From positions 395,560,001 to 395,624,000 of the forward strand of contig OZ024740.1 of the NCBI GenBank assembly GCA_964016885.1: a DNA stretch of 64,000 nucleotides. Reading direction: 5' to 3'. A program made the translations under genes and the position numbers. The DNA comes from Eledone cirrhosa. Lineage: Eukaryota. Positions 15,206-16,470 of the stretch are shown here, piece by piece; positions within the stretch are counted from its first letter, which is position 1; every line of letters starts with the position of its first letter. The notes under the pieces were generated by a model. It had not been told where the DNA came from. It did not search any database and worked only from the letters and a program-made list of their open reading frames with translations.

Positions 15206-15688
15206 TGGATGAAGGTATGTGTGTATATATAGGTGTAAGTGCACTAAATCCCTTTCTATCAATCTCCCCTCTCCTACCGAGCACAGGAAGATATATGTAT
15301 GTATATTGCTTCCACCCCCTCACTGACCAGCAGCTGGCCATCTGGCCATTGCTAAATTTGACCTTTATAAAATAACCCACACCCCCAAATAACTTCTCAT
15401 TCATTACCAGAAGCAGTCAACGAGCTGCTACCAAGATGAAAACTACTATGAAATCCCACAATGAATTTTATACTTGAATTTTCAAATCTCAAATTTTAAC
15501 TCTTCTTATTATTAATTTTTCTTAATATTAATCAACATTTGAAAAGATGGCTTTTGCAGACCCATCGAAACCGGTCATTTTTTATACCCTTTATTATTTC
15601 CTTACCTTATAAAATTATATGTTTTTTCACAAAAAAGTATTCTGTCTCTTATATATTCCATGTGCCATTACCAACCTCAATTTTCTCT
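15175..15688 (+). mobile_element. PLE pseudo-LTR-like terminal module
   Basis: Lies downstream of the GIY-YIG ORF, carries a hammerhead motif, and has an inverted twin upstream. Confidence 0.75.
15534..15581 (+). ncRNA. Minimal hammerhead ribozyme motif, U3-A8 variant
   Basis: AACAT-TTGAAAA-GATGG..CCATC-GAAA-CCGG-TC-ATTTT; GUC triplet; palindromic stem III; stem I weak (one mismatch). Confidence 0.7.
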
Positions 15689-15788
15689 CTCTCTCTCTCT
15701 CTCTCTCTCTCTCTCTCTCTCTCTCTCTCTCTCTCTCTCTCTCTCTCTCTCTCTATATATATATATATATATATATATATATATATAT

Positions 15789-16240
15789 ATCATCATCATC
15801 ATCATCATCAGCGTTTAACGTCCGTGTTCCACGCTTGCATGGGTTTGGACGGGGGTAGTCCCACTTGAGGCAAGAGTGATTGTCTTGCTCGCATAGGACT
15901 GTCTGGCAGGTTTTCTACAGTTGGATGCCCTTCCTAACACCAACCACATTTACAGTGTGGGTCTGGGAGGTTTTTACCGTGTTGCCTACACGGCCACATT
16001 ACAGCGTGGACTGTGTGTTTTTTTGTCGTGACACCTACACGATCTCATTTGTTTCGGCCTCGATGGCGCGGCACCAACATAACTTTACATAGAACGGGGT
16101 GGTGTGGTTCGGGTGGGGGTGGTGGGACGGGGTGTATTTGTTAGAGATGCCTACTGGCTGGAGTAGGTTTTACTATATATTTAGGTAAGGCGGGTCTTCT
16201 CTGTTACTGAGTACCGCCAAAGGTCTCGGTCCAGTGACAT
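15789..16240 (-). mobile_element. RTE subfamily A 3' end
   Basis: Matches 8206-8659; (TA)n at both ends. Confidence 0.93.
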
Positions 16241-16244
16241 ATAT

Positions 16245-16470
16245 ATTAGAAAGTGGGTTTTTTTTACAAAATGAAAAATAACCGAGGTGTCCTACACGAG
16301 TGAAAGTATAAGGAAAAAAAGATGAAATTGAAAATGTAACTAGAGTCTTATTTTAAAAAAATATATATATTTATTAGGTTCCTTTACCGGTTTCGCAGTT
16401 CTTCTGCTTTTCAAAAGGTGAGTTGAGATGGAGGGTCTGTGGTTTTTCTCACATCTGGTTTTTCTCACAT
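16245..16470 (-). mobile_element. Solo PLE-type terminal module within (TA)n
   Basis: Short unique segment between TA tracts that carries a hammerhead motif followed by AATAAA. Confidence 0.6.
16381..16418 (-). ncRNA. Minimal hammerhead ribozyme, U3-A8 variant
   Basis: Minus strand reads CCTT-TTGAAAA-GCAG(AAGAA)CTGC-GAAA-CCGG-TA-AAGG; perfect stems I and II; GUA triplet. Confidence 0.85.

Follow-up and report, generated by a model that had tools for sequence, protein, structure and literature searches.

Minimal type I hammerhead motifs with a U3-A8 core in the terminal repeats of two Neptune-type Penelope-like families of Eledone cirrhosa

The window analysed here is the whole stretch of 64,000 nucleotides from Eledone cirrhosa (assembly GCA_964016885.1, contig OZ024740.1, positions 395,560,001 to 395,624,000), numbered from its first letter on the forward strand. 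Two short motifs carrying the heptamer UUGAAAA lie within the remains of two families of Penelope-like elements (PLEs), referred to below as families A and B. The features concerned are the following.

12653..13216, reverse strand: inverted arm of an insertion of family A, whose outer end, terminating in (TA)n, extends about 40 nt further
12803..12850, reverse strand: second copy of hammerhead motif A, identical to the first and lying within that inverted arm
13217..13695, forward strand: one unit of family C, a retrozyme-like tandem family of 483 bp, nested within the insertion of family A
13794..15688, forward strand: main arm of the family A element, 5'-truncated, with 87-90% DNA identity to the full-length copy L064; it holds the RT-EN linker, the GIY-YIG endonuclease, a microsatellite-rich 3' UTR and the terminal repeat with motif A
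13795..14358, forward strand: remnant frame with a CX4CxxC linker and GIY-YIG (PF01541, E 8.9e-05) and without RT
15534..15581, forward strand: hammerhead motif A, type I with a U3-A8 core, 48 nt, weak helix I
16239..16466, reverse strand: 3' stub of a family B element, about 230 bp between TA-rich repeats, 90.6% identical to the long copy L067
16381..16418, reverse strand: hammerhead motif B, type I with a U3-A8 core, 38 nt

Motif A is made up of AACAU (15534-38), UUGAAAA (15539-45), GAUGG (15546-50), an 11-nt loop, CCAUC (15562-66), GAA-ACCGGU-C (15567-76) and AUUUU (15577-81), giving a 5-bp helix II, a palindromic ACCGGU helix III and a predicted cut after the C at 15576. Motif B, read on the reverse strand from 16418 to 16381, runs CCUU, UUGAAAA, GCAG(AAGAA)CUGC, GAA-ACCGGU-A and AAGG, with 4-bp helices I and II, the same ACCGGU and a predicted cut after the A at 16385. 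When the sequence was re-read, both strings were found at the positions and on the strands given in an earlier reading made from the sequence alone, in which the 3' strand of helix I is absent from the string quoted for motif A. Their anatomy is that of minimal type I hammerheads, as this sequence-only reading had proposed, and the core bases fit: U4, G5, A6, N7, A9, G12, A13, A14, the A15.1-U16.1 pair and H17 are all present in both motifs, and helix II, of at least 4 bp, is closed by G10.1-C11.1 (5 bp in A, 4 bp in B). Helix I of motif A comprises two contiguous pairs, a C·U mismatch and two A-U pairs, a pattern that is the norm of family A, and helix I of motif B has four clean pairs, inside the range of 3-5 bp found in PLE minimal hammerheads. 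Judged by their letters, A and B have the features of PLE minimal hammerheads, save for the doubtful helix I of A.

A descriptor for the U3-A8 form (TTGANAA, helix II of at least 4 bp, then GAAAC-palindrome-GTH) matched the window three times and matched none of 300 dinucleotide shuffles of it. A scan of the whole window with Rfam returned no hammerhead at E≤5; two C3-G8 motifs in the window went unmatched likewise, so the miss is not specific to U3-A8. The same window holds an Rfam tRNA match at 60953-61024 on the forward strand (43 bits, above the gathering score). At least five distinct hammerhead families had been counted in the window by the earlier reading; a search with 14 family templates, at a tolerance of roughly one substitution per six positions, recovered four: A (two copies), B, C (13514) and D1 (1936). 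Four contig-only sequencing runs, each a single low-depth contig and two of them filed under other organism labels, list no change in 15534-15581, a result from which nothing is concluded.

The elements that carry the motifs could be read from fuller copies elsewhere in the genome. In full-length copies of family A, two motifs on the same strand enclose ORF1 and an RT-GIY-YIG frame of 777 aa; the spacing of the motifs is 4,670-4,885 nt in all four tandem loci checked. RVT_1 and GIY-YIG domain matches place an RT ahead of a C-terminal GIY-YIG endonuclease in the host elements. Family A has a CX4CxxC linker, two cysteines (CxxC) within GIY-YIG and a DKG motif; family B has the same linker and two cysteines within GIY-YIG, in a frame scanned without the DKG region. 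A CX2-5CxxC linker, two cysteines in GIY-YIG and DKG are the features by which Neptune elements are recognised in Craig et al. 2021 (PMC8557442), and on these protein motifs the hosts of A and B are assigned to Neptune-type, endonuclease-bearing (EN+) Penelope-like elements. All 72 scored genome matches of family A ORF2 are 99-100% identical and stop-free, so family A is taken to be young. Some copies of the family (L076, L090) have a single open frame of 1,142-1,176 aa, and most copies have ORF1 and RT-EN in different frames.

Insertions of these families show a tandem or inverted layout, 5' truncation, (TA)n targets and a tail at one end. Their ends fall at two preferred distances from the cut site (19/64 and 29/64 for A, 15/49 and 17/49 for B), which resembles the tail described for PLEs in PMC8557442. 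The arms of the family A insertion in the window match the full-length copy at 87-93%, and the inverted repeat itself (12592-13216 against 15165-15790) has 93% identity with the flanking microsatellite included. Its remnant frame is 96.8% identical to the intact ORF2, from which it differs by six changes, one of them at a conserved His. The two A copies in the window lie on opposite strands in outward-facing orientation, and the B copy is a solitary stub. All three are truncated by-products and, since none has a same-strand partner of its own family or an RT, are probably inert. Both motifs sit in the terminal repeats of their elements, which bears out the suggested link to Penelope-like elements. 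Retrozyme status was rejected for A and B, whose motifs are the ends of coding elements of 4.7-5.7 kb.

Pattern counts were made across the whole 3.0-Gb genome, with the reversed pattern as control, for the combinations U-A, C-G and U·G at positions 3 and 8. The pattern TTGAAAA-N11-30-GAAACCGGTH gave 19,526 matches against 13 in the reversed control, and these figures, with the 300 empty shuffles of the window, reject a chance origin of the motifs. Among the 100 matches listed for this pattern, 92 are of type B, 7 of type A and 1 of type G, a third U3-A8 family; a strict motif A pattern gave 2,054 matches (control 0). Other bases at position 7 added 3,383 U3-A8 matches (control 41). The same pattern with CUGANGA, that is with C3-G8, gave 111 matches, below its own control of 158. 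The U3·G8 version gave 192 against 45, and the 100 matches listed for it are mostly scattered single mutants of U3-A8 families. Position 17 was preset to non-G in the search patterns, and its constancy is accordingly no evidence. When copies were picked by their flanks, away from the search anchor, UUGAAAA was present in 26/26 B and 35/35 A copies, many of which are inverted partners of selected copies and hence not independent.

U3-A8 is therefore the norm across A and B copies, and decay of single copies from CUGANGA is rejected. The family consensus is UUGAAAA and not CUGANGA, so that the sequence-only reading stands in seeing a family-level covariation (19,526 and 3,383 matches for U3-A8 against 111 for C3-G8) and in expecting CUGANGA screens to miss these motifs, the 111 matches lying below control. 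It had also called the core rare, an epithet that does not survive more than 22,900 U3-A8 pattern matches in this genome. We infer, from the known structure, that positions 3 and 8 form a Watson-Crick pair, here as U-A. The C3-G8 patterns sum to 57,856 genome matches with family H (a C3-G8 family described below) left out, so that the share of U3-A8 among the matches counted is no more than roughly a quarter to a third.

Folding calculations bear on how such short motifs might act. The ACCGGU self-duplex is calculated at -8.3 kcal/mol and closure within a monomer would leave a 2-nt loop; the palindromic helix III of A and B would thus need a partner. For B, the double hammerhead comes to -21.1 kcal/mol, with the most stable dimer fold at -22.5 and a pair of monomers at -15.0. 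The double hammerhead of A comes to -7.9 kcal/mol (-5.9 with the outer pairs) against -24.1 for a competing fold. The energy model omits the tertiary contacts of the core, and the gap to the best fold in two C3-G8 families is 12.2 kcal/mol (D1) and 2.6 kcal/mol (H); given those omitted contacts and the gap of D1, the gap of A is a warning and not a disproof. Mixed A/B pairs would have the palindrome in common but one contiguous helix I pair.

In the mechanism proposed, the two ACCGGU palindromes of a read-through transcript, each too tight to close by itself, would join to form a helix III of 6 bp, and U3-A8 would substitute for the C3-G8 tertiary pair. A cut after C17 (A) or A17 (B) would then release a unit-length element RNA that, perhaps circularised, would be reverse transcribed and inserted at (TA)n. 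The C3-G8 pair is covered in PMC3884650 and the dimer model in PMC6765202, and the cutting of read-through RNA to unit length by paired motifs is drawn from Cervera & De la Peña 2014 (PMC4209133). In that paper, PLE minimal hammerheads show no cleavage as monomers and low cleavage as dimers. Activity here is likely to be low without helper factors, and lower in A than in B. The weak helix I of A and of its older relative F, together with the strong competing fold of A, could also be expected of motifs that derive from hammerheads but no longer cut, at least in A, and whose letters are a binding or priming signal for the RT or passengers in the terminal repeat. The authors of PMC4209133 leave other functions open for metazoan PLE motifs, reporting very low activity in vitro, and since Naiad PLEs lack canonical hammerheads and yet spread (PMC8557442), the motif may be dispensable. 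Even between families whose flanks have lost all likeness, however, the catalytic bases stay the same and variation is confined to position 7, and a binding signal would not be expected to track the hammerhead rule so closely, which makes this explanation improbable.

The two motifs had been described as unrelated. Their hosts are in fact sister families: RT-EN of A and of the B copy L067 share 59% identity over 502 aa and 57% over 750 aa, and A, B, G1 and G2 fall into one clade of 11 rows (SH-aLRT 99) with the C3-G8 family H outside. The tree is a quick LG+G4 one with SH-aLRT only, which included 34 of at least 120 homologues; in a careful tree of 7 rows the branching of A, B, G and H was not resolved. 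The best reading is that A, B and G likely share one inherited U3-A8 core. Separate origins of the swap in A and B, driven for instance by an AT bias of mutation in this genome, are very improbable even with its recurrence in the Hydra-type family M, in the non-coding tandem repeat E and in Cercyon elements of Schistosoma (PMC4209133), since A, B and G are closely related to one another (54-59% identity), have the CCGG palindrome in common and form a clade inside which no C3-G8 element was found among the families whose cores were read. On the most probable account, two Neptune-type sister families carry A and B in their terminal repeats as minimal type I hammerheads, whose U3-A8 core was likely inherited from a common ancestor and which are predicted to cut only as pairs.

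Among the published systems closest to these motifs are the about 1,300 U3-A8 Penelope hammerheads that PMC4209133 (Cervera & De la Peña 2014) reports from Cercyon in Schistosoma mansoni, and the supplementary alignment of that paper includes one PLE-linked motif with the UUGAAAA heptamer. Natural U3-A8 hammerheads were reported by Perreault et al. 2011 (PMC3088659), with U3-A8 swaps active in vitro. On these two sources, the description of A and B as an under-described system is not supported. Like the Cercyon minimal hammerheads, A and B are type I motifs in PLE terminal repeats with U3-A8, a short helix I, G10.1-C11.1 and a palindromic helix III, and they occur mostly as lone or opposite-strand truncated copies. 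Unlike the Cercyon motifs, A and B lie in Neptune-type hosts and carry a 2-nt insert in helix III (ACCGGU); their helix II measures 4-5 bp and lacks an additional base behind A9, whereas Schistosoma has 7-8 bp with one; and there are more than 22,900 matches here against about 1,300, the copies being far more uniform.

A small palindromic helix III with a 2-nt insert, and a 2-bp helix I as in A, are also features of Penelope in Drosophila virilis (PMC4209133), which differs in its bulged helix II and in an intron end at helix I, neither of which is seen in A or B; the portion of that paper at hand reports no U3-A8 swap for hammerheads of the D. virilis type. The covariation between positions 3 and 8 described by Perreault et al. 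2011 (PMC3088659) is the same as here but is not tied, in the part available, to Penelope or to dimer-type motifs. A canonical type I hammerhead has a 6-bp helix I and a contact between loops 1 and 2, whereas helix I here is 2-4 bp. Non-LTR retrozymes (Cervera & De la Peña 2020, PMC7229834; bioRxiv 10.64898/2026.07.22.740005) are PLE-linked repeats of animals that contain type I hammerheads, with a tandem layout like that of families C, E, J and K of this genome, and no U3-A8 retrozyme was found in the available portions of either source. Retrozymes are non-coding tandem units of about 170-400 nt with one hammerhead each, a description that fits family E (316 bp) but not A or B. In the literature searched for U3-A8 and in listings of papers on cephalopod hammerheads, no description of the present families was found; Lünse et al. 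2017 (RNA Biol 14:1499) may hold them.

The U3-A8 swap is thus already known in nature and in Penelope elements, and is known to be tolerated. The novelty lies in the scale: no fewer than six families have U3-A8, among them one of Hydra type and a tandem retrozyme of 316 bp. Ribozyme biology is little changed by them. For annotation, the more than 22,900 pattern matches are lost to CUGANGA descriptors, and none was found by Rfam in the window. Family A, with dozens of intact, near-identical copies and a poor helix I, and family B, with its clean dimer fold, are together material with which to probe whether Penelope elements need the ribozyme. The most interesting remainder is the side families E and M.

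U3-A8 is present in families A, B, E, F, G and M. Across them, position 7 is A, U, C or G and the other hammerhead-invariant bases are fixed; helix II is GAUGG/CCAUC, GCAG/CUGC, GAUG/CAUC, GCAU/AUGC, GCCC/GGGC or GCUU/AAGC, with the pairing kept; and helix III is ACCGGU, ACGUACGU or a 4-bp stem. Family F is an older look-alike of A in which helix I is also weak; no coding part was recovered at 15 distinct places, and its tie to A therefore rests on likeness of motif and flanks. Outside this genome, a metagenome scan covering 1 of 64 parts gave 0 of 119 matches with a helix II of at least 4 bp plus a helix I of at least 2 bp. The loci of the two side families are as follows.

Family E: loci L107, L115 and L382-L401, for example G000:C1:6519946-6521556
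Family M: loci L364, L371 and L374, for example G000:C1:51628218-51630694

Family E is a 316-bp non-coding tandem unit whose U3-A8 hammerhead has 4-bp helices I, II and III. Its helix III shows a compensatory A-U/U-A switch, the two states being found in 29/55 and 20/55 motifs and in 13/22 and 9/22 loci, and part of the unit is about 81% like the C3-G8 tandem family K. The link to retrozyme modules that had been drawn for A and B finds its counterpart in this retrozyme-like tandem repeat. It is a family that CUGANGA screens would miss.

The family M hammerhead combines U3-A8 with a G at position 7 and the 8-nt palindrome ACGUACGU. Its protein shows DKT and CxCX5C and lacks a Cys pair within GIY-YIG, which is the Hydra signature, and is 20-27% identical to those of A, B and G. 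In a one-clade test with seven rows (four near-duplicate or short rows omitted) a single origin with M was not rejected (p 0.32), and it is because of the Hydra-type motifs, not the trees, that a second, separate gain of U3-A8 in M appears likely. A tentative extension is that U3-A8 may have been fixed at least twice among the PLEs of this genome, in the Neptune-type A, B, F and G and in the Hydra-type M, and besides in the retrozyme E, whose covarying 4-bp helix III could permit cleavage in the monomer and the formation of circular RNA. In that case as much as a quarter or a third of the hammerheads of the genome and a whole retrozyme family would be invisible to CUGANGA screens, and A, B, E and H would form a natural series for the effects of the 3-8 pair and of helix I strength on cleavage in mobile elements that are young.

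An abundant repeat, family N (L224-L241), also carries UUGAAAA, with a 7-nt insert, a GUUG/CAAC stem and GAAACGUU. It has no clear helix I and was not counted as a hammerhead. Several of its copies lie within about 2 kb of arrays of family J.

Among the C3-G8 families, the family C unit nested in the family A insertion has its hammerhead at 13509-13592 and is unrelated to A. The family has 1,245 genome matches; its helix II is very long, and its helix I (CCUU/AAGG) is identical to that of motif B. The D1 copy, at 1936-1963 on the forward strand, is a C3-G8 minimal hammerhead with one core change, and the D-type C3-G8 pattern has 14,526 genome matches. Family H (L178 and L179; G000:C1:21876800-21881200) is a young Neptune-type family with a C3-G8 hammerhead and many intact 775-aa frames, its 15.2-16.2 pair being G-C and its palindrome AGUACU. 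Families J and K (L200-L222; G000:C1:5738326-5752444) carry C3-G8 hammerheads with ACUAGU in tandem arrays of 420-540-bp units, one array reaching 31 units, and account for 41,974 pattern matches.
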